Part shown: one piece after another, positions 38,261-50,416 of the stretch
Numbering within the stretch: position 1 is the first letter of the stretch
How the letters are laid out: each line of letters opens with the position of its first letter
Assembly: GCA_029573725.1 (NCBI GenBank)
Contig: JAKQDQ010000042.1
Location: forward strand, 777 to 64,776
Direction: 5' to 3'
Length of the DNA: 64,000 nucleotides
Source of the DNA: Verrucomicrobiota bacterium
GTDB lineage: Bacteria; Verrucomicrobiota; Verrucomicrobiia; Limisphaerales; JADLHS01
Made by a program: the position numbers and the translations under genes
The notes under the pieces: model-generated
Told to the model about the DNA's origin: nothing
Databases searched by the model: none
The model's input: the letters and a program-made list of their open reading frames with translations, nothing else

Positions 38261-39271
38261 TCAGTTGTTGTGATCCACCGCCACGATGCGGACGTTCTTG
38301 TTCTCGAACACCCGCGTCCAGTTGGCGGCATTCTCCAGTTCCGCGTTGGTCGGGCTCGTGCCCGCCACCGCCGCGGAATTGAACTTCACGCCTCGCGGAT
38401 GCAGGATGAAGCGACGCCGGTTGATGAAGTTCGTGTCGCTGTCCAACGCGGCTCGCGCCCACTCGACCCCTTCCGTGCCGTGCCCGCCCATCAGCGGTTC
38501 ACCCGCCAGCGGCGCCGCGCCACGGGCGAATGCGCCCGGCCCGAACAGGTAGCTGGTGTAAACCTGACCATCGGTCGTGCCGTTACGCACGGGCAGACCA
38601 TCGTCCACGATGACGCGCCGGCCCTGGAAGGTCTTGATCTGCGCTTTCCCCTCGCTGTCGGGGATGAAGTCAATCAAGTCCAGTTTGCGCAGCGCCGCTT
38701 CGGTGCCCGAGTGCATCGCCACTGCCGTGAGACGGTCGCCCCGGTCGCCGAGCTTCACCGTCGCATCCACGAAGGTGGCGCCGTTGAGCCGCGTCGCGGA
38801 CGACTGGCCCGCGATGCTTTCACTCGCGATGGACAACTTGTTGCCCGCCATCGTCGCCGAGGCGAACAGGCCCTTGAGGCTGGAAACGATCAGGCCCTGG
38901 TCCACCCGAATCCAGTAGTCGCCCACCAGCTCCACCAACGCGCCCATCGGATCATCACCGGAAAGCACCTTGGCCAGGTCATTCACGCTCCACGCATTCG
39001 CGTCCATCTGGATGCGCGCAATGTCCTTGCTCGCGGTGATCTTGTTCACCGTGAGCGGCGCATTGTCAGCCAGAATCTGGCGCGTCGGATTCACATCCTG
39101 CCAGAACGGCATGTCCACCGTGTTCCCACCACCAGCGGCCAGCGCGTCAAAGAACGGGTCGCTCTCGACGATGCCACTCGCACCGAACGCCGACAGGGTC
39201 GCCGTGCGCTCGATCACGTATTTCTCAAACACACTCGGAACAATCACGTCCGAGATTGCCGTCTTAGCCAT
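38261..39271 (-). CDS. major capsid protein
   Basis: 336 aa, immediately after the scaffold gene. The N-terminus MAKTAISDVIVPSVFEKYV and the MPFWQD motif resemble phage coat proteins. Size and position fit an HK97-fold MCP. Confidence 0.75.
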   Translation of the reverse strand: MAKTAISDVIVPSVFEKYVIERTATLSAFGASGIVESDPFFDALAAGGGNTVDMPFWQDVNPTRQILADNAPLTVNKITASKDIARIQMDANAWSVNDLAKVLSGDDPMGALVELVGDYWIRVDQGLIVSSLKGLFASATMAGNKLSIASESIAGQSSATRLNGATFVDATVKLGDRGDRLTAVAMHSGTEAALRKLDLIDFIPDSEGKAQIKTFQGRRVIVDDGLPVRNGTTDGQVYTSYLFGPGAFARGAAPLAGEPLMGGHGTEGVEWARAALDSDTNFINRRRFILHPRGVKFNSAAVAGTSPTNAELENAANWTRVFENKNVRIVAVDHNN

Positions 39272-40149: not shown

Positions 40150-40731
40150 TCACAACTCCACCTGAATCCGCCCTTGCATCATCACCCCCGGACTCAGTTG
40201 GCCTTCCACGTAGTGATGCACGCGCAGCCAGATGAACGTGTCCACCGGCCATTCGCCTCCCTCGCCCGGACCATCCCACGACCCGTGCACGGCTGCATAC
40301 GCCGTCCCAATCGACGGCGTTAAATCACCCATCACCAGCGTTCCCGGCGTCATCACCGCGATGAAGCGCAGCCATCCATGCGCGTTCACCTCCTCCGCGC
40401 CCAACGGTCGCGTCGCCCACACCAACCACTTCACGCCCGGCCCAAAGTTGTCCTCCGCCCGAAAACCCACGAACCCGGCGTTCTCCGTAAACGGCCCGGC
40501 ATCGCGCAGCGATAAACCGCCATCCGACCACGTTGCCTCTCCGGGCAGCACCGCCGGATTCGCCGCGTCACCCGCGAGCGCCCGGTTGCGCAACACCCTC
40601 GTCATCGCCTTGCGCCCGCTCACGCGCCGCACCGTGCCATCAGCCAGCAGCACCGGATTGTTCTTCGCCCACGCGCTCCACGCCCGACGTTGCGTTTGCG
40701 TCAGGGACTTCCATTCCTTCGCCGCTTTCAT
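40150..40731 (-). CDS. hypothetical head-module protein
   Basis: The start MKAAKEW overlaps the portal stop (ATGA). 193 aa, no motif recognised. Confidence 0.45.
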   Translation of the reverse strand: MKAAKEWKSLTQTQRRAWSAWAKNNPVLLADGTVRRVSGRKAMTRVLRNRALAGDAANPAVLPGEATWSDGGLSLRDAGPFTENAGFVGFRAEDNFGPGVKWLVWATRPLGAEEVNAHGWLRFIAVMTPGTLVMGDLTPSIGTAYAAVHGSWDGPGEGGEWPVDTFIWLRVHHYVEGQLSPGVMMQGRIQVEL

Positions 40732-42218
40732 TGCGTTGCGTCTCCTTGTTCGCTTGCCATCGGCATTTGTTGACCGCGACAAACCAGTTGGTGCTCCTCC
40801 TCATTGGTGCGTCCCGGCGGCAACACTTCACCGCGCCGGAACAGCTCGCACATCGTCTCCCGGCTGATCGCCCCCGCCTGCCACGCGGCCACGACGGCCG
40901 TGATCTCATCACTCGACATCCCCTTCGTGCTGAAGTCCGAGTTGAGTTCCATCAACACGACGTCTTCACCAATTTCCTCAGGGCTTTCCTCGGTCGAGTT
41001 CCACCAATAAACCCAGCGCAACACGTGCGTCAGTGAATCACTCACACTCAACGACACCGCCGACAGCACCGAGTTTTCACCGCTTTGACGAAGTTCGATC
41101 GCATCGGCGGATTCGCCCACGCGCTTCTGTGCTTCGAGCATTCGCGTGCCAAGCACCGCCATGAGCCGTTCATCACGATCCATCGCCCGTTCAAACGTCG
41201 TCAGCCCTTGGCCCGTGAACTCCAGGAAACCAGCCGTCGCACCGGGAGTTTCCGCCACCCACGCAGTGCTTGAGCCGATTCGCAGCGTCGCCGACTTGTC
41301 GAACCCGCTCACCCAGGCCGTCGGCAGTGCGGTAAAATGCAGGCCATGCTTGTAGTCGGCATTCAGCCGATAGTGATCCAGATTCACCGCGATGATGTCC
41401 GCCAGCGGCAGTTTATCCACGCATGGCTGGCAGTTACGCGGACCATGAAACACGAACGGAATCAGTGGCAGCGGTTTCCCCAGGCGAAGCGGAATCCGGG
41501 TTTCGACTTTGACCCATTCGGGTTTGCTGCGCTTGGACTTCGACTCCTGGCGCTGCCAGATTTCCACCTGATAAAACCATCCGGTATTCTTTTCGTCAGA
41601 ACTTTTGGCTCCCTTCACGAGTCGCAACACCCGGAGTTGTTCCACTTCCTTGACGACGAAAGGATCCTCCTGACTCTGCCCCGTCTCACTCAGGACGAGC
41701 AGGGTCAGAACATTCCGACCATTCACCCGTTCCGTACGCCAGTTGATGATTTGTTCCACTTGGTAGAGTACGGCATAGGCGCGACGTTCCACGTCACCTT
41801 CCCAATCCACGAGTGTCCCGGCCCGACCCACCGTGATGACCTCACTGACGATGTTCTTCGCGTAGGATTCCAGCGGCGTGCCGAGCATGTCGGCATCATC
41901 CCGGAATCCCGCGAGTGCCTTGCCCACACCGGACTGGTCGTCCGGCAATTTCACGGCGGACTCGCGCCGGAAGATCAAACCCACGAAACCATCCACCGTG
42001 CGGGCCGTGGCATTGAAGAAGGAAGCACGGGATTTGTAGGCGGCATATTCGGTTTCGGATTGCGAGTCGAGGCGCGGCAGATACCGGGTGCCGGCGGCCT
42101 TCACCGCGTCCTCGCCCGCAAAAACATCCCGCGCCCGCAACCACGCGGCGGCGTTGGCATCGTAATCAGGATGGGTCGAGTTGACCGGCACGCGCGCACC
42201 GTAGCACGTCATTTTCAC
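40728..42218 (-). CDS. phage portal protein (DUF4055-like)
   Basis: 496 aa. The N-terminal pattern HPDYDANAAAWLRARDVFAGEDAVKAAGTRYLPRL...EYAAYKSRA is typical of DUF4055-type portals. Confidence 0.8.
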   Translation of the reverse strand: MKMTCYGARVPVNSTHPDYDANAAAWLRARDVFAGEDAVKAAGTRYLPRLDSQSETEYAAYKSRASFFNATARTVDGFVGLIFRRESAVKLPDDQSGVGKALAGFRDDADMLGTPLESYAKNIVSEVITVGRAGTLVDWEGDVERRAYAVLYQVEQIINWRTERVNGRNVLTLLVLSETGQSQEDPFVVKEVEQLRVLRLVKGAKSSDEKNTGWFYQVEIWQRQESKSKRSKPEWVKVETRIPLRLGKPLPLIPFVFHGPRNCQPCVDKLPLADIIAVNLDHYRLNADYKHGLHFTALPTAWVSGFDKSATLRIGSSTAWVAETPGATAGFLEFTGQGLTTFERAMDRDERLMAVLGTRMLEAQKRVGESADAIELRQSGENSVLSAVSLSVSDSLTHVLRWVYWWNSTEESPEEIGEDVVLMELNSDFSTKGMSSDEITAVVAAWQAGAISRETMCELFRRGEVLPPGRTNEEEHQLVCRGQQMPMASEQGDATQ

Positions 42219-42404
42219 GGCTCACCCGCATGTCATCTGCGCCTCACGAACCATCACGAACCCCACCCCTCTTGCCACGAACACACCCGAACTATTTTTT
42301 GTGGATTCCCCCTTGACGGTTTTCACAACCACGACGCGACACAACTTGCGAACGCCGCAATGTCCGTTGGCGGGCAGCGGCGTTCTCCCGTGTCTCCACT
42401 CCGT

Positions 42405-42599
42405 AGCTCTCGATGTGGTGTGTGTGTCAGCTCCGCACAGGCCGCGTAGATGGACGGCGAATGCATCTGCCGCGCCAGCCTGCCGCAGGCGCAACACAGG
42501 CTGTCACGGCAGATGCTTCGCCGGAGGAATTGAATGCGCTGTCGCGCAGCGCGACCCGTGCTCCGCAATGGTGATGACACACACACCACATCGAGAGCT
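42405..42599. repeat. 195-bp inverted-repeat element with perfect 25-bp arms (IR1)
   Basis: AGCTCTCGATGTGGTGTGTGTGTCA (42405-42429) is the exact reverse complement of 42575-42599. The 145-nt interior contains further nested stems, for example GGCGAATGCATCTGCCG / CGGCAGATGCTTCGCC and CAGCCTG / CAGGCTG. Confidence 0.85.
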
Positions 42600-42813
42600 G
42601 CTACGTTACGTTCGCAGTCACTGGCTGCGCTGGCAGGGCAGCATTGCCAGCTTCTATTTCCAGCGCGTCACCCAGCCCGTCCAGTTCTGGGTCGCGTGCG
42701 GGCGTCCACCCCAGTTCGCGCCCCGCATCCCGTGGTGGCAGCCGTTCGTCTGGCAGTATCTCGTCATCACTGGCTGGGTGCGGCCATCGCGCCAGCCACC
42801 TTGGGCAGCGTGA
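42568..42813 (+). CDS. hypothetical Trp-rich small protein (weak call)
   Basis: 81-aa frame (MVMTHTPHRELLRYVRSHWLRWQG...) with very high third-position GC, better than the antisense ORF 42601..42861. Its ATG lies at the inner edge of the right arm of IR1. Confidence 0.25.
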   Translation: MVMTHTPHRELLRYVRSHWLRWQGSIASFYFQRVTQPVQFWVACGRPPQFAPRIPWWQPFVWQYLVITGWVRPSRQPPWAA

Positions 42814-42901
42814 GCCGCTTCGTGGCTCACCGTCGCCGTGAACGATATCCACCTTGAGCATGGCGTAAGAACGGAAGTTTTGGCACGCTGCGGATTGAGC
42901 C

Positions 42902-43453
42902 ATGTGCACCGATTACGAAGGCCCAAAGCCGGAACAAAAAGCAGAGATCGAGCGTAAAATCCGATGTGAGGTTTTCGGCTTTGTCCCGCGTGCCCGTGTT
43001 CGCCCCACTGACCCGGCGCCAATCATCATTCCGGTGGAAGATTCTTTGGCCTGCTCCGAAATGCGGTGGGGCTGGACTGTGCCGTGGGACAAAGCACCAT
43101 TGGTCAACGCCAAGAGTGAAACCCTCACCACGCTTGCCACGTTCAAGCCCCACTTGGATCAGCGCTGTCTGATTCTCGCCCGCAGTTTCAAAGAAGGCGG
43201 CGCGCAATTTCACCAATCCGGATGGGGCGTGTTCTGTCTGGCCGGTCTCTGGCGCGAGGAATCCAGCGGCCCGCGCTTCGTCATGCTCACCACCACACCC
43301 AGCGAATCCGTCGCCCCCTTTCACAATCGGATGCCGTTTCTGCTCCGGGAAGAACAATTCCCCGACTGGTTGCGCGGCGATTACCTCAAAGTGCTGGCCG
43401 CACCGGACAAGTCGCCGCTGGAGAAATTCCAGAAGCAGCCCGAATTGTTTTAG
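42902..43453 (+). CDS. SOS response-associated peptidase (SRAP/YedK family)
   Basis: It starts with MC (the catalytic Cys2) and has the conserved NAKSET and HNRMPFLL motifs. 183 aa. It is on the strand opposite to the structural genes. Confidence 0.8.
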   Translation: MCTDYEGPKPEQKAEIERKIRCEVFGFVPRARVRPTDPAPIIIPVEDSLACSEMRWGWTVPWDKAPLVNAKSETLTTLATFKPHLDQRCLILARSFKEGGAQFHQSGWGVFCLAGLWREESSGPRFVMLTTTPSESVAPFHNRMPFLLREEQFPDWLRGDYLKVLAAPDKSPLEKFQKQPELF

Positions 43454-43513
43454 TTCACTCGCGCCGTCCCGCTTTTCAAGCAGTCGAGACCGGTGAACAC
43501 CAATCGTCCTTCG

Positions 43514-43726
43514 TCACCATCGTCGTTTTGGACCAACGTAGATCGCGTTACACCGACAACGCGCCTGGAATGCTTTTGGAATCGGCGACCGCATCTTGAT
43601 CTCGGCCACGACACGGCATTGTTGGCAAATCAGCAACGCCACGAAATCTTCGGATTCGTAACCGACACTGACCTTCACGCGGGAAGTTTCACACGCAGCC
43701 ACGTAAACTCGTTCTTCGCTGGCCAT
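43514..43726 (-). CDS. small zinc-ribbon-like hypothetical protein
   Basis: 70 aa with a non-degenerate composition and CQQC...CRC cysteine pairs. Its third-position GC is lower than the host's. Confidence 0.35.
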   Translation of the reverse strand: MASEERVYVAACETSRVKVSVGYESEDFVALLICQQCRVVAEIKMRSPIPKAFQARCRCNAIYVGPKRRW

Positions 43727-44742
43727 TTCAACGCGCCGGGTATTCGGTCGCCCTCGAAAGACAAAATTGGCCCGCTGCGCTCGAAGGGAAATTAGTTCGC
43801 GCTACATGGCTCGCCGGTGCGGCTCGCACTTCGCGTGCTCAACCACCACGAGGCGCGCAACCATTCACGGTTTCCATGTGCGAACGTCACGCTCGCGGCC
43901 CTTTCGCTCCAGCGCCCACGCATCGAACGCCGCAGGTTGTCGAACGTCGGTCGTGCATTCCAACCGTTCAGGTTGGCGGATGTTTTAGGCGCGCTGTCAG
44001 GCATGGGGATGGAATGACGCCGGCTCGTCGCTTCGCTCCTCGAATTGCAAGGTGGCCCGTGCGGCACGCACCAGCCTGGCTTCACAGAGCGGACACTTGC
44101 GCTTCGGCGCGGCTGCCCCGCTTCGCAGTTCAGCCGACCTCGCGCCAGGTGACGCGGTTCGGGCAGGCGCTGGCCGCCAGATGATCCTCACCGCTTCCGC
44201 ACTGTTCCGCCCGCGCCACTGGCCGGACTCGTCAGCTTTCCGCCCGCTCCATTCGCTGCCGCACTCCGCTTCGCCGACTTCGCTGGATGCTCTCGCTCAT
44301 TCCGACGGCCGCAAACTGCCGAGACCGGCACGGACAGCGGTGCTCCCAAAAACGCAAGACGCCGAAGGCCGCGATGCTCCGCATGTCGCCCAGGACAAGA
44401 CCACCGGAATAGCCGTGAGCCCGCCCAGCTTTCGCTGGCGCGAAACTGGCCGGACTCACTGATGGTGGCCATCCGCAAGGATGTCTGAGACTTCGTCGTC
44501 AGGCTGCGGTCCTGCTACCGATCCACACCCTGATCCCCTGGTGGCCGTCCGCAAGGACCTCCGCTCTGCCGTCGAAGACTCAGAATGGTTGGCTTCGCGT
44601 TGGCGCGACTGCGCCCGGTGGCCGGTGACGCTGTCACCCGGCAGACCCGGCCAAAGGCATCGGCTCGCGGCGGATTGGCACGAACGACCGGCGAGGCTTA
44701 CGGTGCTCGTTCCTGCGCGCCTGTGGCCTCGCCTTGCGTACC

Positions 44743-44886
44743 GGGGCGACACACAACACATATTGTGCGTTCGTTCCCTCGTGCCTCGGTCACACCTTTA
44801 TTCCTGATCGCACCGACACTCCTCACTCGTGAGCCGCTTCGGTGCGGGAATAAAGGGTCGCACAATATGGCGTTGTGTGTAGCCCC
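44743..44886. repeat. 144-bp nested imperfect inverted repeat (IR2)
   Basis: GGGGCGACACACAACACATATTGTGCG (44743-44769) pairs with CGCACAATATGGCGTTGTGTGTAGCCCC (44859-44886). Inner stems are ACCTTTATTCC/GGAATAAAGGGT, CGCACCGA/TCGGTGCG and CTCAC/GTGAG. Confidence 0.8.
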
Positions 44887-45370
44887 GCTGCTTCACTGTC
44901 ACGCTGATTGCTTCCTGGATTCCCCATCCGGCACGCGACTGCCCTCGTCGCGTGGCAATCACCGCGCCAGCTCGCAGGCATCCTTCGCGCCAACACCGCC
45001 GCTCCGCATGATGGCCAGTGCGGCACGCACCAGCCGGGTCTGCTTGCCCCAATAGCTCGCCGGTACGGCTCGCACCCCCACCCAACCCCAATGCTCGACC
45101 CCTTCCGTCCCCAAGGGGTCGTCGCGCGCAAAGTAGTTTGCTCGCTTCGCTGGTTGGATCGCGTGGCTGCAGGATGCAACCACGCGCCAATGGAAGGCCG
45201 GACTCCGGCTTTTCAGGTCCGGCTTTTTCTGCTCCGCGTTTCTCTCCATCGCCCTCCCGGCCTCGCCGCAAGACCAGCCCGCCCACTCGTGGCGACCTTC
45301 TGAAGACCACTTCCACGGGGGAGGGCTGGCGGCTCGGCGTTGTCGTGAAGGGCGACGGACAGAAGACGCA

Positions 45371-45949
45371 ATGCAGAGCAGAAAAAAAAAGACCATGAAA
45401 ACAAATAAACAAAACTATGAAGGGGCTCGGGAGCAGATCCGCAATACTCAGCAGACCAACACCAGCACAGTTCGACAAGAAGTTGATGCAGTGGTGGCCA
45501 AGTTTTCCACCCCGACCGGTGGAGACGTGACCGCGCAGGACATCGCGGAGCAGAAAGCCCGTGATGCGAAGCAAGCCAAGGTTGATAATCGCTTGCCGAT
45601 TGATTCCCAGGCACGGAAGCAGAACCGGACGCTTCCGACCCCGAAGGTGTTGAACCTTTTGTTGACCACGTTGCCGGACGTTTACCGCGCCGCCGAGGTT
45701 GTCGGGAAATGGGTTTGGGTGACGTTCAAGGAGCAACCCGCCGCCGAGATTCGGCAGCACTTGGCCCAGCTTGGCTTCCACTGGAATCGTGAGCGGCAGA
45801 CATGGCAGCACCCCTGCGGCCAGTTCCGCTTGAGCAGCAACAACGACCCGCACGAGAAGTATTCCAGTTACTACCCCGCCCGGATTCGTCGCAGCACCAA
45901 AGCACAGACCCCGGAGATGATGGCCAGTGGCGCTGCCACCGCCGCGTGA
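45371..45949 (+). CDS. hypothetical protein (phage/plasmid accessory type)
   Basis: 192 aa. The C-terminal segment VGKWVWVTFKEQPAAEIRQHLAQLGFHWNRERQTWQH resembles a small domain I have seen on plasmid/phage accessory proteins. An alternative start is at 45395. Confidence 0.5.
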   Translation: MQSRKKKTMKTNKQNYEGAREQIRNTQQTNTSTVRQEVDAVVAKFSTPTGGDVTAQDIAEQKARDAKQAKVDNRLPIDSQARKQNRTLPTPKVLNLLLTTLPDVYRAAEVVGKWVWVTFKEQPAAEIRQHLAQLGFHWNRERQTWQHPCGQFRLSSNNDPHEKYSSYYPARIRRSTKAQTPEMMASGAATAA

Positions 45950-45993
45950 TTCAACCGGGGCGGGCAGCACCCGCCCCCAACTCTCCCAAGATT

Positions 45994-46209
45994 ATGACGA
46001 ACTCCTACACCCTCCGAGCCGGTGACCTTGTCGAGTATGCCGGCCAGCCGTGCCGCGTGGTTCGCGTGAGCGAATCCGCCGCCCTTGTCGCCGTGATTCA
46101 AAAGCCGCGCACCATCACCCCGCGCTTTGGCAAGCCGGTGACCATTCAACCACGCCCCAAGCTGGAGCGCATTTCCCCAAACTCCGAAATCCCCATCCTT
46201 AACCGCTAA
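45994..46209 (+). CDS. small hypothetical protein
   Basis: 71 aa (MTNSYTLRAGDLVEYAGQPCRVVRV...), SH3/KOW-like beta pattern, tightly spaced with its neighbours. Confidence 0.4.
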   Translation: MTNSYTLRAGDLVEYAGQPCRVVRVSESAALVAVIQKPRTITPRFGKPVTIQPRPKLERISPNSEIPILNR

Positions 46210-46213
46210 CACT

Positions 46214-46675
46214 ATGAACCAAGACCAGAATATCAATCCAGAGGAAGCGCTCCGCGCCGTTTTCGGCGAACCGCAGCAGATCGCCGACGGCATCACCGCG
46301 TTCGGCCCGGTCGTTTACAGTTACACCCGCGCGCAGGCCGTCGCCGACGGCGTGCAAGTCGAAGTCACCAAGACCGCGCAGGAAGCCGGAATCCGCTTCC
46401 CGGTTTTTCTCACCCGCACCGTATTCGACGCCTACGTTGCCGTGCCGCCCGACGTGACCGGCCAAGACGAAGCCGGGCGACTCTGGGACATCGTCTGGAT
46501 GTTGCGCTTTGCCATCCAGCGCACCAGCCGCGGAGTTGCGCGCCTGCCGTTCGCGCTCTACGTGCGCAACGACAACCGCGCCGCCAAGCTCATCAAGTTG
46601 GTCGCCGTCGCTGGCCCGCTCGACATTGACGACCCATCGCCCGCCATCACCGTGATGTTGCCGGACGAAGATTGA
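46214..46675 (+). CDS. hypothetical protein (possibly DUF6573-like plasmid/phage accessory protein)
   Basis: 153 aa with a clean, non-degenerate sequence. The family assignment is from memory only. Confidence 0.5.
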   Translation: MNQDQNINPEEALRAVFGEPQQIADGITAFGPVVYSYTRAQAVADGVQVEVTKTAQEAGIRFPVFLTRTVFDAYVAVPPDVTGQDEAGRLWDIVWMLRFAIQRTSRGVARLPFALYVRNDNRAAKLIKLVAVAGPLDIDDPSPAITVMLPDED

Positions 46676-46721
46676 AACCACCACAGGCCGCGCTCCGCTC
46701 CGGGGCGCGGCCCTTTGACCT

Positions 46722-47057
46722 ATGACTTCCCAATCATTTCTTGGATTCGAGCAGCAGACCCGCGACGCCGAACTCGCCGCCGCCAATGCCAAGCTACAGG
46801 CCAAGCTCGCGGAGCAGGCCCAACGCGCCATCCGCAAGCGACAGGAGGAAATGGCCAAGAACACCCGCCGATGGAAGCGCGAGGAAGCCACGCGCAAGCG
46901 GAACGACATCCTCGTTGCTCAGTGCGGCATCAATTGGTATTCGCGCCGCCGCGATGCGGGCATCTACTGGACGCACTGCAAGACTTGCGGCCAGTTGCTC
47001 CACTACACCGACGACAAAAACGCGAAGCCCCAAGTTTGCGCCGGTCGCAAATCGTAG
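46722..47057 (+). CDS. coiled-coil + zinc-ribbon hypothetical protein
   Basis: 111 aa with a charged helical N-terminus and C-terminal C..W...HCKTCG...C cysteines. Confidence 0.45.
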   Translation: MTSQSFLGFEQQTRDAELAAANAKLQAKLAEQAQRAIRKRQEEMAKNTRRWKREEATRKRNDILVAQCGINWYSRRRDAGIYWTHCKTCGQLLHYTDDKNAKPQVCAGRKS

Positions 47058-47132
47058 CCCCCCCATATTTTCCAGCCTGCCGCGATGACACCCTCGCGGC
47101 TGGAGGCAGGTGCGGCTCGCACAAAAATTTTT

Positions 47133-47172
47133 CGCCTGACGGCTCGCGCTCGTCAGGCGAATCCATTTTTTC
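47133..47172. terminator. bidirectional rho-independent terminator between the plus-strand island and terL
   Basis: CGCCTGACG (47133-47141) pairs with CGTCAGGCG (47151-47159). ATTTTTT follows on the plus strand and AAAAATTTTT precedes it, which gives a T-run on the minus strand. Confidence 0.55.
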
Positions 47173-47233
47173 GGCTGGGTCTTGCGCCGACCCAGACCCG
47201 CGCCAAAGGGTGGCAACCCTCTGGGCACTGTGC

Positions 47234-48631
47234 TCACAGCCCCCGCAACTTCCGCTCGCTGATCGTTCGGGTTTTCGTCGCCACCAAGTAGCGGAGACAG
47301 TCCGCGCAGTCATCGCCCCCAACGCCATCCTCGTCCGCGTCCACCTTGAGCACGTCCTCGGGCCGGTTTGGATCGTGTTGGAGTGCCGGCAACGTCTCAA
47401 TCAGCCGCCCGCAACGGGCGTGAATGAATAGTGTCGGCCTGATGCCTCCCTCAATATCACCTAACCCTTGCATAACTTCTGCCCAACCGTTCACCCGGTC
47501 GGTGTTGGCTGGACGCAGCGTGATACCCTGTTTCGCATATTGCGCGGCAATCGTCGTCCCGTCCGATTGCCGGCTGAAAACATCCGCGCCGGCCACGAAC
47601 CGTTTCAGGTCCGCCAGCGTCAATGCCCGGTCGCCAATCTTGTGCCGCGCGAGCATGGCCTTGATCGCCGCCGCGTGCCGTTGCGGCAGCCACAACCGCT
47701 CCGCGTGTTCATCCACGACATAGGTGTTTCCATCGCCATCGCGGCAGCCGAGCAGGCAGACCGTGTAATGGACGTGGCCGTAGTCAAAGGCACAGAACCA
47801 CTCCACGGCCCGCGCATCGTCGAAGTCCTCGACGACGTGAACGTCGCGCCGGAACTGCGTGAAGAACTGACCGGCGGCAATGTCCCAATCACCATCGAGC
47901 CAGGCGCGGCGTTGCCAGCCCGTCAGACCTTCCAGAATCCGCCGGTATTCCGGGTTGTTGAACGCATTGTCGTCGACGCGGGCCGGAATGAAGCGCGTTT
48001 CCGTCTCGCGCCGCTCCAGCATCGGCTGGACGAATCGCTTGCGATACCACGCATGACCAACGCCGCCGGGATTCGTGGTGGAGTAGATGCGCGGACGCCA
48101 GTTTGGCTTGGACGACCGGCAGCACGTCGTAATGTCTTGAAACTTCCGGCTCGTCAGTGTGGTTGCTTCCTCGATCCCAATGACATCGTATTCCAAGCCC
48201 AGGTAGGCATCCACGTCCCGGTCATTCTGGAAATGCCCGGCAATGATGCGCGAACCATTCGCGAAGGTGAGGATGCCGCGGAACGCGCTGAACTCATGTG
48301 GCAGCCGGTTGAACAGCCGTTGCCGGAGATCCTCGAAGTGCTCCAGGTTCGCTTTGCCCACTTTGCGGAGCAGCAGACATTTCAATCCTGGCACACGCTG
48401 ACAATCGTCGGCGCCGACTTGGGACAACATCCAGTGCGACTTGCCGCCGCCACGAGCGCCACCGTAACCGACTTCCGTCGGCCCGTCGGGGCGGTCGCAC
48501 AATCGGGCGGCAGCACTGGCAACCAGTTGACGCTCTTGCAACCACAATTTCGCGGCCACGAAGTTGCGGGTTTGATCCTCGGGACAGCCCGCCGCAATCG
48601 CGGCGTTCAGGAAAATTTCACGCTCGTTCAT
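47234..48631 (-). CDS. terL: terminase large subunit
   Basis: 465 aa with Walker A-like GGARGGGKS, Walker B LLLRKVG..., the ATPase coupling motif GIEEAT and a C-terminal RNaseH-like nuclease region (FDYGH..., DADEDG). Confidence 0.9.
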   Translation of the reverse strand: MNEREIFLNAAIAAGCPEDQTRNFVAAKLWLQERQLVASAAARLCDRPDGPTEVGYGGARGGGKSHWMLSQVGADDCQRVPGLKCLLLRKVGKANLEHFEDLRQRLFNRLPHEFSAFRGILTFANGSRIIAGHFQNDRDVDAYLGLEYDVIGIEEATTLTSRKFQDITTCCRSSKPNWRPRIYSTTNPGGVGHAWYRKRFVQPMLERRETETRFIPARVDDNAFNNPEYRRILEGLTGWQRRAWLDGDWDIAAGQFFTQFRRDVHVVEDFDDARAVEWFCAFDYGHVHYTVCLLGCRDGDGNTYVVDEHAERLWLPQRHAAAIKAMLARHKIGDRALTLADLKRFVAGADVFSRQSDGTTIAAQYAKQGITLRPANTDRVNGWAEVMQGLGDIEGGIRPTLFIHARCGRLIETLPALQHDPNRPEDVLKVDADEDGVGGDDCADCLRYLVATKTRTISERKLRGL

Positions 48632-49224
48632 GGCTTCGCCTCCTGGACGTCAATCACCGGTTGCTCCGGGACAGCTTCCACCTTCGCGCTATACGCCTTG
48701 CGGATGGCAATCTCCCAATCCACATCAATCGTCGCCTTCACCGTGGTGTTGACCTCCTTCACTTCTGTCGGCATCCCTGCCGCCAGCCGACCGAGCTTGG
48801 TTGCCAGTTCCAGCACGCGGGCGATGCCTTCCAGCGTGCCGCACTTGGCTTTGTTCTTTTCCCACCGCGCCAACATTTCATCCGCCAGCGCGATTAGCTT
48901 CTTGTGCCGCTGCCACTCGGCGACTTTCACGGCTTCATGCACCTTGTTCCAATCGACCGCCTTTTCGAGCGCCAACCCTTCGATGGCTTCGCGCTCGATG
49001 GTCGCCAGGTGCGCGGCGTGAGCTTGCACCCGTGCCGGCCAGTCGAACCGCCGCGACCAACGTTCGATCATGGTCTTGGACTTGCCGTGCTGGACGGCCA
49101 CGACCGCCAGCGAGCGTTGTGCGCCAAGTTCTAAGTAGGTTTTGAAAGCCGCGAACGCCTTGTTGCTCTCGCGGGGTTGCTGTTCAAATGACAACGCTGC
49201 TGTTTCTTGCTTGCTCGATTTCAT
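48628..49224 (-). CDS. terS: terminase small subunit (HTH type)
   Basis: The start MKSSKQ at 49224 and N-terminal AFAAFKTYLELGAQRSLAVVAVQHGKSKTMIERWSRRFDW match the HTH pattern of small terminases. Its stop overlaps the terL start. Confidence 0.65.
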   Translation of the reverse strand: MKSSKQETAALSFEQQPRESNKAFAAFKTYLELGAQRSLAVVAVQHGKSKTMIERWSRRFDWPARVQAHAAHLATIEREAIEGLALEKAVDWNKVHEAVKVAEWQRHKKLIALADEMLARWEKNKAKCGTLEGIARVLELATKLGRLAAGMPTEVKEVNTTVKATIDVDWEIAIRKAYSAKVEAVPEQPVIDVQEAKP

Positions 49225-49378
49225 GGTCTTTTTTTCCGCTGGCCCGTCCGGCTCGGACCGTCTCGCCTTAACGGCAGTAGTGGAATGGCAACCCGACCCA
49301 AGAAGGGTTGCCTTCCCGACTGCCTGCTTTGCTGGTGTAGTCCACTTTCTATTTAAGGGATGTTGGACTGTTGGACTG

Positions 49379-50416
49379 CTACTCGTTTCCGACCCAATAC
49401 AGCCCGCCGCCACTCTTGATTAAACCGTTGGCCACAAGCCGTTTGAGGTAGTTTGCCACGCTGCTCCGGCTCATCTTGAACTCGCTTTTGGCGGCTTCGA
49501 CGATTTTGGCGAAGGTTTTGCCCTCCGAACTCATCACGGCATCCACAAATTCCTTGTCCGAACACACCTTGTTTTTGGACTGTGGCCGGCGCAGTGCTTC
49601 CGGGTTCAGGTCGCTGGCGACCTTCATCAGGGGATACTCCCAGCCGACCACGAACTCCGGCAGTTGCGGCAGGTTGCGGAGGATGCTGGTGACGGTGAAG
49701 TGATCCGGCTCTTCGTGCGGCGTCAGCACGACGATGGTGTCGGGGTCGCGCGCCCACGCGCCTGCACCGCTCATGCGGTCCATCGCCGACTTCGCCGTGC
49801 TATCGCCCTTGGCAAAATGGTGCGCGACCACGATGGCCGCGCCGGTCTTCTGCGCCATTGCTTCAAACTCGTTCATCAGGCTGGCGATCTCGCCGTTGGC
49901 GTTCTCGTCGCGGTTGCCCAGCACCTTGTAAGCGGGGTCGAGGATGATCAGACCGAACTGATGCTTGGCGAGTTGTTCCTCCAGCTTGGGCCGCAGCAGG
50001 GTGATGTCGGCATTGTGCCCGCGCAGATTCCAAATGTGCAGCGTCTTGCCCATCGCCTTGCACTCGGGCCGCGCCCCGCACAACGCATTGATGCGTTGCG
50101 CCACCGCCCAGGTGTGCAGCTCGAAATTGATATACACCACCGGCAGCTTGGCGCATTGCCGTCCCCACCACGGTTGCCCGCTCGCCACGGACAACGCCAG
50201 GTCCAGCAGACACCACGACTTGTTGCTCTTGCTCGTCCCGCCGAGGATCATCTTGCACCCTTGGTGCAGGATGCCCTCGATGATGAGCGGCGGCGGTGGC
50301 GTCGCCACGGCGCACAACTGCTCCAGCGTCAGAATGTCCGGCAGCGGCGGCGCGACCGCGCCCAGGTCCACCGCCGGGTCAACCTGCTCAGTCGGGGAAT
50401 AGGTTTTGATCTCCAT
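49379..50416 (-). CDS. RepA/DnaB-like replicative helicase (AAA_25) with C-terminal wHTH
   Basis: Walker A ILGGTSKSNKS, Walker B LIILDP and a RecA-like core, with a C-terminal MarR-like helix (VANYLKRLVANGLIKSGG). Confidence 0.7.
   Translation of the reverse strand: MEIKTYSPTEQVDPAVDLGAVAPPLPDILTLEQLCAVATPPPPLIIEGILHQGCKMILGGTSKSNKSWCLLDLALSVASGQPWWGRQCAKLPVVYINFELHTWAVAQRINALCGARPECKAMGKTLHIWNLRGHNADITLLRPKLEEQLAKHQFGLIILDPAYKVLGNRDENANGEIASLMNEFEAMAQKTGAAIVVAHHFAKGDSTAKSAMDRMSGAGAWARDPDTIVVLTPHEEPDHFTVTSILRNLPQLPEFVVGWEYPLMKVASDLNPEALRRPQSKNKVCSDKEFVDAVMSSEGKTFAKIVEAAKSEFKMSRSSVANYLKRLVANGLIKSGGGLYWVGNE

Follow-up and report, generated by a model that had tools for sequence, protein, structure and literature searches.

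A conserved long hairpin as one arm of a putative large structured RNA in phage-like elements of Verrucomicrobiota

To our knowledge, very few structured non-coding RNAs of great length have been described in bacteria and phages (GOLLD, ROOL and OLE), and their functions are still open. GOLLD and ROOL are large ornate RNAs of phages and prophages, which form Rfam families and have been studied by cryo-electron microscopy (PMC12286853). Here we analyzed a stretch of 64,000 nucleotides (nt) from a Verrucomicrobiota bacterium (hereafter the window; contig JAKQDQ010000042.1 of GenBank assembly GCA_029573725.1, positions 777 to 64,776 of the forward strand), which holds a phage-like element, and within it a long irregular hairpin named IR2. 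The hairpin forms an arm of a four-way junction that lies within a heavily paired non-coding element of about 1.4 kilobases (kb), and this element is followed on the plus strand by a conserved open reading frame (ORF), ORF192 (Table 1).

We judge, with a probability of roughly 0.6, that IR2 belongs as a rigid arm to a new large structured RNA, which acts either jointly with the ORF192 module or upstream of it. In this reading IR2 would be a rigid helical arm of about 48 base pairs (bp) in a four-way-junction core of ~400 nt, and the core would belong to an undescribed structured non-coding element of ~1.4 kb that occupies the gap between terminase and portal genes in phage-like elements of Verrucomicrobiota. 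RNA is the most likely form of this element, which probably acts together with the ORF192 module downstream of it. One option is a separate large RNA with its partner gene alongside, as OLE RNA lies beside oapA, and another is a giant structured upstream region of the ORF192 operon. The invariant segments of IR2, namely the stem ACAACAYATTGTGCG/CGCACAATRTGGCGTTGT and the bulge beginning with TTCGTTCC, may offer a docking surface for a protein or for another part of the RNA. A large RNA is favored because such RNAs are typified by junctions of several branches, helices that close over a long range, blocks that are conserved though unpaired, and peripheral hairpins that vary and are inserted in loops.

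Structure and conservation of the IR2 hairpin

Folded as single-stranded DNA, the region 44730-44900 reached -48.3 kcal/mol, compared with -24.4 +/- 3.1 in 200 dinucleotide-preserving shuffles (z = -7.7), none of which equalled it. A preliminary description of this DNA had placed a long nested hairpin at 44743-44886, and both the hairpin and its parts, the outer arms and three inner stems, were recovered in the fold. The outer stem has 26 bp in three runs (44742-44747/44882-44887, 44749-44757/44872-44880 and 44759-44769/44859-44869), which are split by one 1x1 and one 1x2 internal loop. Inside it lie a 10-bp stem (44795-44804/44847-44856, with an extra pair A44794-T44858 and G44857 bulged), an 8-bp stem (44809-44816/44839-44846) and a 4-bp stem (44822-44825/44830-44833) closed by the apical loop CTCG. 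The same description took these stems for an almost continuous rod of about 140 nt, which is incorrect because a 25-nt asymmetric bulge breaks the hairpin on its 5' side. The first eight bases of this bulge are invariant among close homologues, and the remaining bases are largely conserved. Part of the bulge, CTCGTGCCTCG (44778-44788), forms a small hairpin of its own, the closing pairs of which covary around two invariant pyrimidine-pyrimidine mismatches (covariation 0.497, compared with 0.178 in shuffles; 0 of 500 shuffles match). In 7 of the 33 homologues described below, a mini-hairpin, GGTGCGGCTCGCACC, is inserted in the bulge. IR2 is followed by GCTGCTTCACTGTC and no U run, and a terminator scan made no call on it, so it does not have the form of an intrinsic terminator.

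When two invariant segments of IR2 were used as a search pattern, the contigs recovered numbered 2 from viruses, 25 from metagenomes and 8 from genomes, mostly metagenome-assembled genomes (MAGs) of Verrucomicrobiota; they derive from freshwater, peat and wastewater. A covariance model, R1, was built from 33 full-length IR2 homologues. In their alignment pairing is kept in 96.4% of cells, and both sides are changed in 24 of the 49 pairs; the stems are thus conserved with the compensatory changes on which the preliminary description had made its interpretation depend. The covariation score is 0.279, compared with 0.099 after shuffling and 0.02-0.05 with slid partners. Covariation is also the mark by which a large structured RNA is recognized as such, and none of 500 shuffles reached the observed score. 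Compensatory changes are present in all four helices. For example, CGCACCGA/TCGGTGCG is replaced by CGCGCTGA/TCAGCGCG, CGTGCAGA/TCTGCACG or CACCCAAA/TTTGGGTG, the apical CTCA/TGAG becomes CCCG/CGGG, and in the 10-bp stem one T and its partner A are lost together. The segments ATTGTGCG and CGCACAAT are invariant among close homologues. IR2 is therefore supported as a functional, conserved structure.

Matches to R1 were obtained in 16 of 401 genomes of the order (this genome included) and in 3 further genomes, from other families, among 401 of the phylum. With the 33 close homologues set aside, the order contributes 12 further copies and other families of the phylum contribute 3; these distant matches go down to 40 bits, yet they retain the same stems. 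IR2 is a single-copy feature, since a BLAST search against its own genome returned only itself and R1 gave one locus per genome in the 19 carrier genomes. A sensitive blastn search of a plasmid collection gave no match. Being the most conserved and most easily searched piece of the element, IR2 can serve as a marker of the family.

Five metagenome or MAG contigs were observed to terminate inside IR2, at differing points. These ends may be caused by presence/absence polymorphism of the inserted mini-hairpin, by the difficulty of sequencing through a hairpin or, conceivably, by a real DNA end inside IR2.

Table 1. Coordinates of IR2 and associated features in the window
Feature	Position	Strand	Description
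IR2	44742..44887		long irregular hairpin, one arm of the four-way junction; from the fold, 33 homologues and covariance model R1
IR2 asymmetric bulge	44770..44794		25 nt, TTCGTTCCCTCGTGCCTCGGTCACA; interrupts the 5' side of IR2; alignments A3 and A7
Four-way-junction core domain	44641..45043		closed by GCAGACCCGGC (44641-44651) x GCCGGGTCTGC (45033-45043)
Whole non-coding element	43876..45248		about 1.4 kb; ORF-free, block-conserved, heavily paired; 17-sequence alignment A4, per-block folding
ORF192 leader	45222..45395	+	outermost helix CTTTTTCTGCTC (45224-45240) x GAGCAGAAAAA (45370-45386); inverted repeat I4
ORF192	45396..45949	+	184 amino acids from a conserved ATG; conserved protein linked to the element
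IR1	42405..42599		for comparison only; fold z = -8.2; outside the IR2 family

The four-way junction and the surrounding non-coding element

When covarying helices were sought and the alignments of both strands were folded, IR2 was found to be embedded in a larger fold. Inside the helix that closes the core domain, a long helix (44662-44687/44981-45008) leads to three arms, which are a hairpin at 44690-44733, IR2 itself and a hairpin at 44888-44977. In 28 sequences this domain has 114 consensus pairs with 93% of cells paired, and 50 of the pairs are changed on both sides. Its covariation is 0.213, compared with 0.081 in shuffled alignments (0 of 500 reach it) and 0.02-0.05 when partners are slid, and for IR2 and the junction together the slid controls are 4-10 times lower than the observed values. 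Compensatory changes occur in 14 helices of the domain, including the 11-bp closing helix, which spans 400 nt.

The domain lies within a longer conserved region. Conserved non-coding sequence extends leftward to about 43727, and between 43700 and 45400 relatives from several genera of the family share 70-80% DNA identity. From about 43730 to 45395 no credible ORF was found by G+C content at third codon positions. Upstream of the junction domain, covarying helices were found at 44084-44093/44196-44205, 44222-44226/44325-44329 and 44484-44495/44573-44584. In the last of these, TCTGAG-A-CTTCG/CGAAG-A-CTCAGA is replaced by TCTGAC-A-CCTGAG/CTCAGG-A-GTCAGA, with the A.A mismatch conserved. The element also carries one to four tandem hairpin modules, and its folding-energy density (-0.52 to -0.58 kcal/mol per nt) is higher than that of the RNase P RNA of the same genome (-0.41). 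Another family of the order includes a genome in which the entire architecture recurs.

At gathering scores the whole window is without a match to any Rfam family, and the covariance models of GOLLD, ROOL, OLE, HEARO, raiA and the other Rfam 15 families gave no match in the window. At permissive E-values, the region 42000-46000 returned only microRNA, snoRNA and isrG hits at chance level, none of which spans IR2. In the literature we found no description of the element and nothing on DUF6573, the domain of a protein encoded nearby; one paper that appeared relevant to covariation (PMC5862659) was a false lead, its "covariation" being that of protein residues.

A mini-hairpin, GTGCG-GCW-CGCAC, occurs at 43817, 44059, 45018, 45063 and 47110, often flanked by GGCCAG... 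or GCTCGCCG..., and the loops in which it sits differ between homologues. A second mobile-looking mini-hairpin, TGGTGGCCRTCC-GCAA-GGA, also changes place. From their positions, these mini-hairpins look like small insertions that are tolerated in loops only. Near 43876 the window copy is without ~100 nt that are common to most relatives and lie between two TACGAACGTCAC direct repeats. The missing segment includes the left helix arm GATGCCTGAC, and the right arm (GTCAGGCATC-like) persists near 44000, so the 5' part of the element in the window may be slightly decayed. A conserved C-rich block at 45060-45135, between the junction domain and the ORF192 leader, reads GGGG-N6-GGGG-N9-GGGG-N2-GGG-N-GGGGG on the minus strand and is a possible G-quadruplex.

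ORF192, neighbouring genes and IR1

The element is linked to ORF192. All close homologues of IR2 run on into a conserved AAAAAAAAGACCATGAAAAC and the ORF192 gene. Among the 15 distant carrier genomes, 6 have an ORF192 homologue in the same orientation as the hairpin and 0.35-1.2 kb downstream of it; these 6 represent six other families of the order. The position upstream of plus-strand accessory genes, which the preliminary description had noted, thus holds for the ORF192 cluster in related elements. The ATG at 45396 is probably the true start of ORF192. The protein has more than 1500 homologues, none of them with a Pfam domain, and itself matched no Pfam or PHROG family; its AlphaFold model is weak (predicted local distance difference test score, pLDDT, 61) and no match in the PDB was obtained at E <= 0.001.

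A structured leader precedes the gene. Its RNA fold has z = -7.5, with 38 consensus pairs that show covariation, and the right strand of its outermost helix is an A-rich stretch stopping 9 nt before the conserved ATG. No other piece of the region is as widespread among relatives as this leader. The leader was also seen to accompany ORF192 in many genomes without the large element, with several copies in two of them. A hairpin and T-run at 45197-45232 was considered as a plus-strand terminator, but its T-run proved to be the pairing partner of the A-run just ahead of the ORF192 start and to close the leader, so this reading was dropped.

The phage-like element has on its minus strand terS (48628-49413), terL (47234-48631), a DUF4055 portal gene (40728-42218), the major capsid protein gene (38261-39271) and a primase-helicase gene (49379-50416). 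Between terL and the portal gene there is a 5-kb island of plus-strand genes, encoding an SRAP protein (42902-43453), ORF192, a DUF6573 protein (46214-46675) and a 111-amino-acid ORF. Homologues of terL adjoin the element in all 7 records checked. A paralogous remnant of such an element, on contig C167 of the same genome, is without the entire non-coding element and the ORF192 module, which indicates that the module is accessory and not essential. A 70-amino-acid ORF on the minus strand (43514-43726) was examined as a possible conserved partner and discarded, being present in only 1 of 7 related records. Some genomes hold three or four terL copies with 80-83% identity to that of the window, so several such phage-like elements can share one genome.

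The region 42830-43700, between IR1 (with a conserved 260 nt beside it) and the left edge of the element, is a slot for variable cargo. It holds the SRAP gene and the 70-amino-acid, Cys-rich ORF here, compared with ~2 kb of unrelated sequence on C167 (2337-4304). Three distant IR2-like hairpins are parts of non-coding elements, GC-rich and 330-600 nt long, which come immediately after AT-rich genes of the RHS-toxin/immunity type and lie outside any terminase-portal gap. In two species of one genus, the distant IR2-like element is sharply bounded, with unrelated flanks on both sides.

IR1 is the second long hairpin of the island, and the preliminary description had proposed that IR1 and IR2 are two members of one element family. 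The comparison does not bear this out. R1 scores 164.7 bits on IR2, and on IR1 it recognizes only a 74-nt interior hairpin (19.6 bits, E = 0.04). The arms of IR1 run from a TG-rich 5' arm to a CA-rich 3' arm, those of IR2 from a CA-rich 5' arm to a TG-rich 3' arm, and because of this opposite polarity the two hairpins cannot be aligned on either strand. Since both the model and the polarity separate them, the proposed family fails on the grounds that its own proposer had named, a lack of relationship by alignment. The CA-rich arms noted earlier do occur in both hairpins, but on opposite sides. Likewise, the motif said to be shared is real, as the 14-nt repeat CGTGAGCCGCTTCG is exact at 42809 and 44828, but the copy at 42809 falls outside IR1, at a distance of 210 nt, and is absent from the paralogous copy on C167.

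The patterns of conservation are opposite as well: IR1 retains its arms and swaps its interior, whereas IR2 retains its interior and bulge. Three relatives conserve the IR1 arms, in which one pair takes the covarying states G:C, T:A and C:G, and in one relative the interior is replaced (36 nt compared with 135 nt). The right arm of IR1 and the next 260 nt recur at C167:2078-2337, with the first 49 nt identical and the rest at 88% identity. This copy begins exactly where an IS5-like transposase frame is cut off, after its first catalytic-Asp region. Because its arms are kept, its interior is swapped and the C167 copy starts at a transposase break, IR1 may be a boundary or recombination site of the cargo slot.

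Weighing of explanations and comparison with known systems

Some observations weigh against the reading as a large RNA. The cues for its strand conflict, some favoring the minus and some the plus strand. The conserved unpaired positions (31 C, 21 T, 9 G and 6 A on the plus strand) are purine-rich when read on the minus strand, a bias that holds in close and distant homologues. Also on the minus strand, the mismatches of the small bulge hairpin become tandem G.A pairs with a GNA triloop, the tandem hairpin modules carry GAA or GGA triloops, and 32 of 33 sequences reach a lower RNA minimum free energy. The plus strand is favored by the fixed co-orientation with ORF192 and its plus-strand leader, by apical loops that are A-rich or of YNMG type (CUCG, CACG), and by GCAA-loop hairpins at 44463 and 44539. 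On the plus strand A.C mismatches outnumber G.T (86 and 34, or 28 and 21 in the model-fitted alignment); we set this excess aside as a strand cue, because the plus-strand ORF192 leader shows the same bias, and it is probably mutational. G.U pairs being no commoner than A.C is what a fold of single-stranded DNA would also give. No promoter or terminator was called for the element on either strand, and a search by eye for promoters on both strands, at the element edges here and in one distant copy, found nothing convincing. The remnant on C167, from which the whole module is missing, belongs with these points. The scarcity of G.U pairs (1-3% of cells in the element) was also considered as a sign of constraint at the DNA level and dropped, because the RNase P RNA of the same genome is equally poor in them (3 of 93 pairs, 3.2%); low G.U is therefore no argument against RNA.

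That the fold acts as single-stranded DNA, whether as a priming or initiation signal of the single-strand initiation (ssi) type, as a structure-specific site for recombination or cargo capture, or as a packaging-related signal, is possible but unlikely. Such an action would fit helices that are nearly pure Watson-Crick with G.T no commoner than A.C, the nearby primase-helicase and terminase genes, and hairpin modules that read GCGNAGC on the minus strand. GCGNAGC-type sequences form unusually stable DNA mini-hairpins and occur in the phiX174 and G4 origins; the likeness of the modules to G4-type ssi is only loose. The variable cargo, both beside the element (SRAP and the 70-amino-acid ORF here, other cargo on C167) and in the form of AT-rich toxin/immunity-type genes adjoining distant copies, would fit as well. 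However, no relaxase, HUH nuclease, integrase or rolling-circle Rep is present among the annotated neighbours, no long-lived single-stranded stage is obvious for an element of tailed-phage type, a 400-nt four-way junction closed by an 11-bp helix within 1.4 kb of further structure far exceeds the sizes of known ssi, single-strand origin (sso) and attC sites, and the low G.U is equalled by RNase P RNA, as said above. We consider it quite unlikely that the IR2-bearing core is a folded single-strand platform, of RNA or minus-strand DNA, which marks and perhaps directs a hot spot of cargo insertion. This idea arises because variable cargo lies directly left of the element, between it and IR1, in the window and its relatives, and because three distant IR2-like elements of ~330-600 nt abut unrelated AT-rich cargo of toxin/immunity type at a sharp homology boundary. 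If true, it would amount to a structure-guided gene capture, far larger than and unlike integron attC sites. With attC sites IR2 shares conservation of structure over outer-stem sequence, asymmetric unpaired bases and variable cargo nearby. In contrast to them, its arms, ACACAAC / GTTGTGT, only half-meet the R-box RYYYAAC / GTTRRRY (AAC/GTT core only), it is single-copy with no cassette array and no integron integrase among the annotated neighbours, the core sequence is highly conserved, and the element is much larger and branched.

Other readings concern the hairpin more than the larger fold. The preliminary description had suggested, as one possibility, that IR1 and IR2 belong together as single-stranded-DNA promoter or initiation hairpins, similar to the Frpo/ssi elements, which here would drive plus-strand accessory genes, and for this we found no positive evidence. 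Both are long hairpins with CA-rich arms upstream of plus-strand genes, the linkage of IR2 to ORF192 holds across families of the order, and Frpo and G4-type ssi elements are likewise long imperfect hairpins, mostly Watson-Crick, upstream of genes of accessory or anti-defence type. However, the covariance model does not relate IR1 to IR2 and their polarity is opposite, no sigma-70-like pair of -35/-10 hexamers occurs on either strand in 42200-47300 or in the stem, and the outer stem, at 26 bp, falls short of the ~29 bp that a -35 box, spacer and -10 box (6 + 17 + 6) would take up. The setting is the terminase-portal gap of a phage-like element and not a conjugative leading region; no conjugation genes were seen, and in a search of the window that was not exhaustive no relaxase or type IV secretion gene was found among the annotated ORFs. 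Moreover, IR2 is embedded as an arm of a 400-nt junction, and a separate structured leader, beginning 335 nt further downstream, belongs to ORF192. The suggestion is therefore scarcely probable at all, and long hairpins upstream of accessory genes should be checked for a larger fold before they are read as single-stranded-DNA promoters. A cis-acting site for RNA processing or stability in a long transcript, cut by RNase III as in lambda sib or T7 R1.1, is highly unlikely. A long Watson-Crick stem with small internal loops is the usual form of an RNase III substrate, and IR2 has such an outer stem (26 bp, Watson-Crick only), lies upstream of a conserved operon on the same strand, and has a second long, nearly perfect stem, IR1, in its vicinity. 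By analogy it resembles the 20-30-bp, near-pure Watson-Crick stems with small internal loops of lambda sib and T7 R1.1, which stand in phage transcripts near regulated genes. It differs from them in its conserved 25-nt bulge, its three further nested stems and its position in a junction. Conservation is stricter for the unpaired bulge and the junction context than for the stem sequence, which a simple double-stranded cleavage site would not need, and three distant copies lie outside the ORF192 operon context. Selfish or neutral palindromic DNA, either an insertion of the miniature inverted-repeat transposable element (MITE) or repetitive extragenic palindrome (REP) type or a quasi-palindrome kept by template switching, is a very improbable source of IR2. 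The mini-hairpins GTGCGGCWCGCAC, within the element and near it, do show the behavior of insertions, and several assemblies break inside IR2, but IR2 itself is single-copy per element and per genome, it occupies the same place in the same larger fold across many families, its unpaired bases and asymmetric bulge are kept in close homologues, and neither a target-site duplication nor an empty site is evident among the aligned relatives.

A large structured RNA with IR2 as its rigid arm thus remains our preferred reading; that the folded molecule is RNA, and how it would act, we infer from sequence and structure. It is a more remote possibility that the 1.4-kb RNA forms a particle with the ORF192 protein in tail-less, capsid-forming elements. 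The setting is a poorly studied phylum, in which the element keeps a fixed place between packaging and portal genes of phage-like elements. Its tie to the domain-less ORF192 family, with more than 1500 members, offers a concrete route to function through RNA-protein cooperation.

Among the known systems, OLE RNA with oapA is alike in that a large structured RNA lies beside a same-strand gene for a conserved protein of an otherwise unknown family. Sequence, fold and host group (Firmicutes for OLE) are unrelated, ORF192 is apparently not a membrane protein, and a partnership between element and protein would be proposed by analogy. GOLLD and ROOL are similar in kind to the element described here, for which no sequence or structure match was found in Rfam. 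They are found near tRNA islands, whereas the element lies between terL and the portal gene beside ORF192 in Verrucomicrobiota. As in the element, they are very large, intricately paired, carried by phages or prophages and defined by covariation, with a conserved core and a variable periphery. Sharing these hallmarks of GOLLD, ROOL and OLE, the element, its length of about 1.4 kb exceeding that of ROOL (about 660 nt) and of GOLLD (over 800 nt), would rank among the largest of such RNAs.

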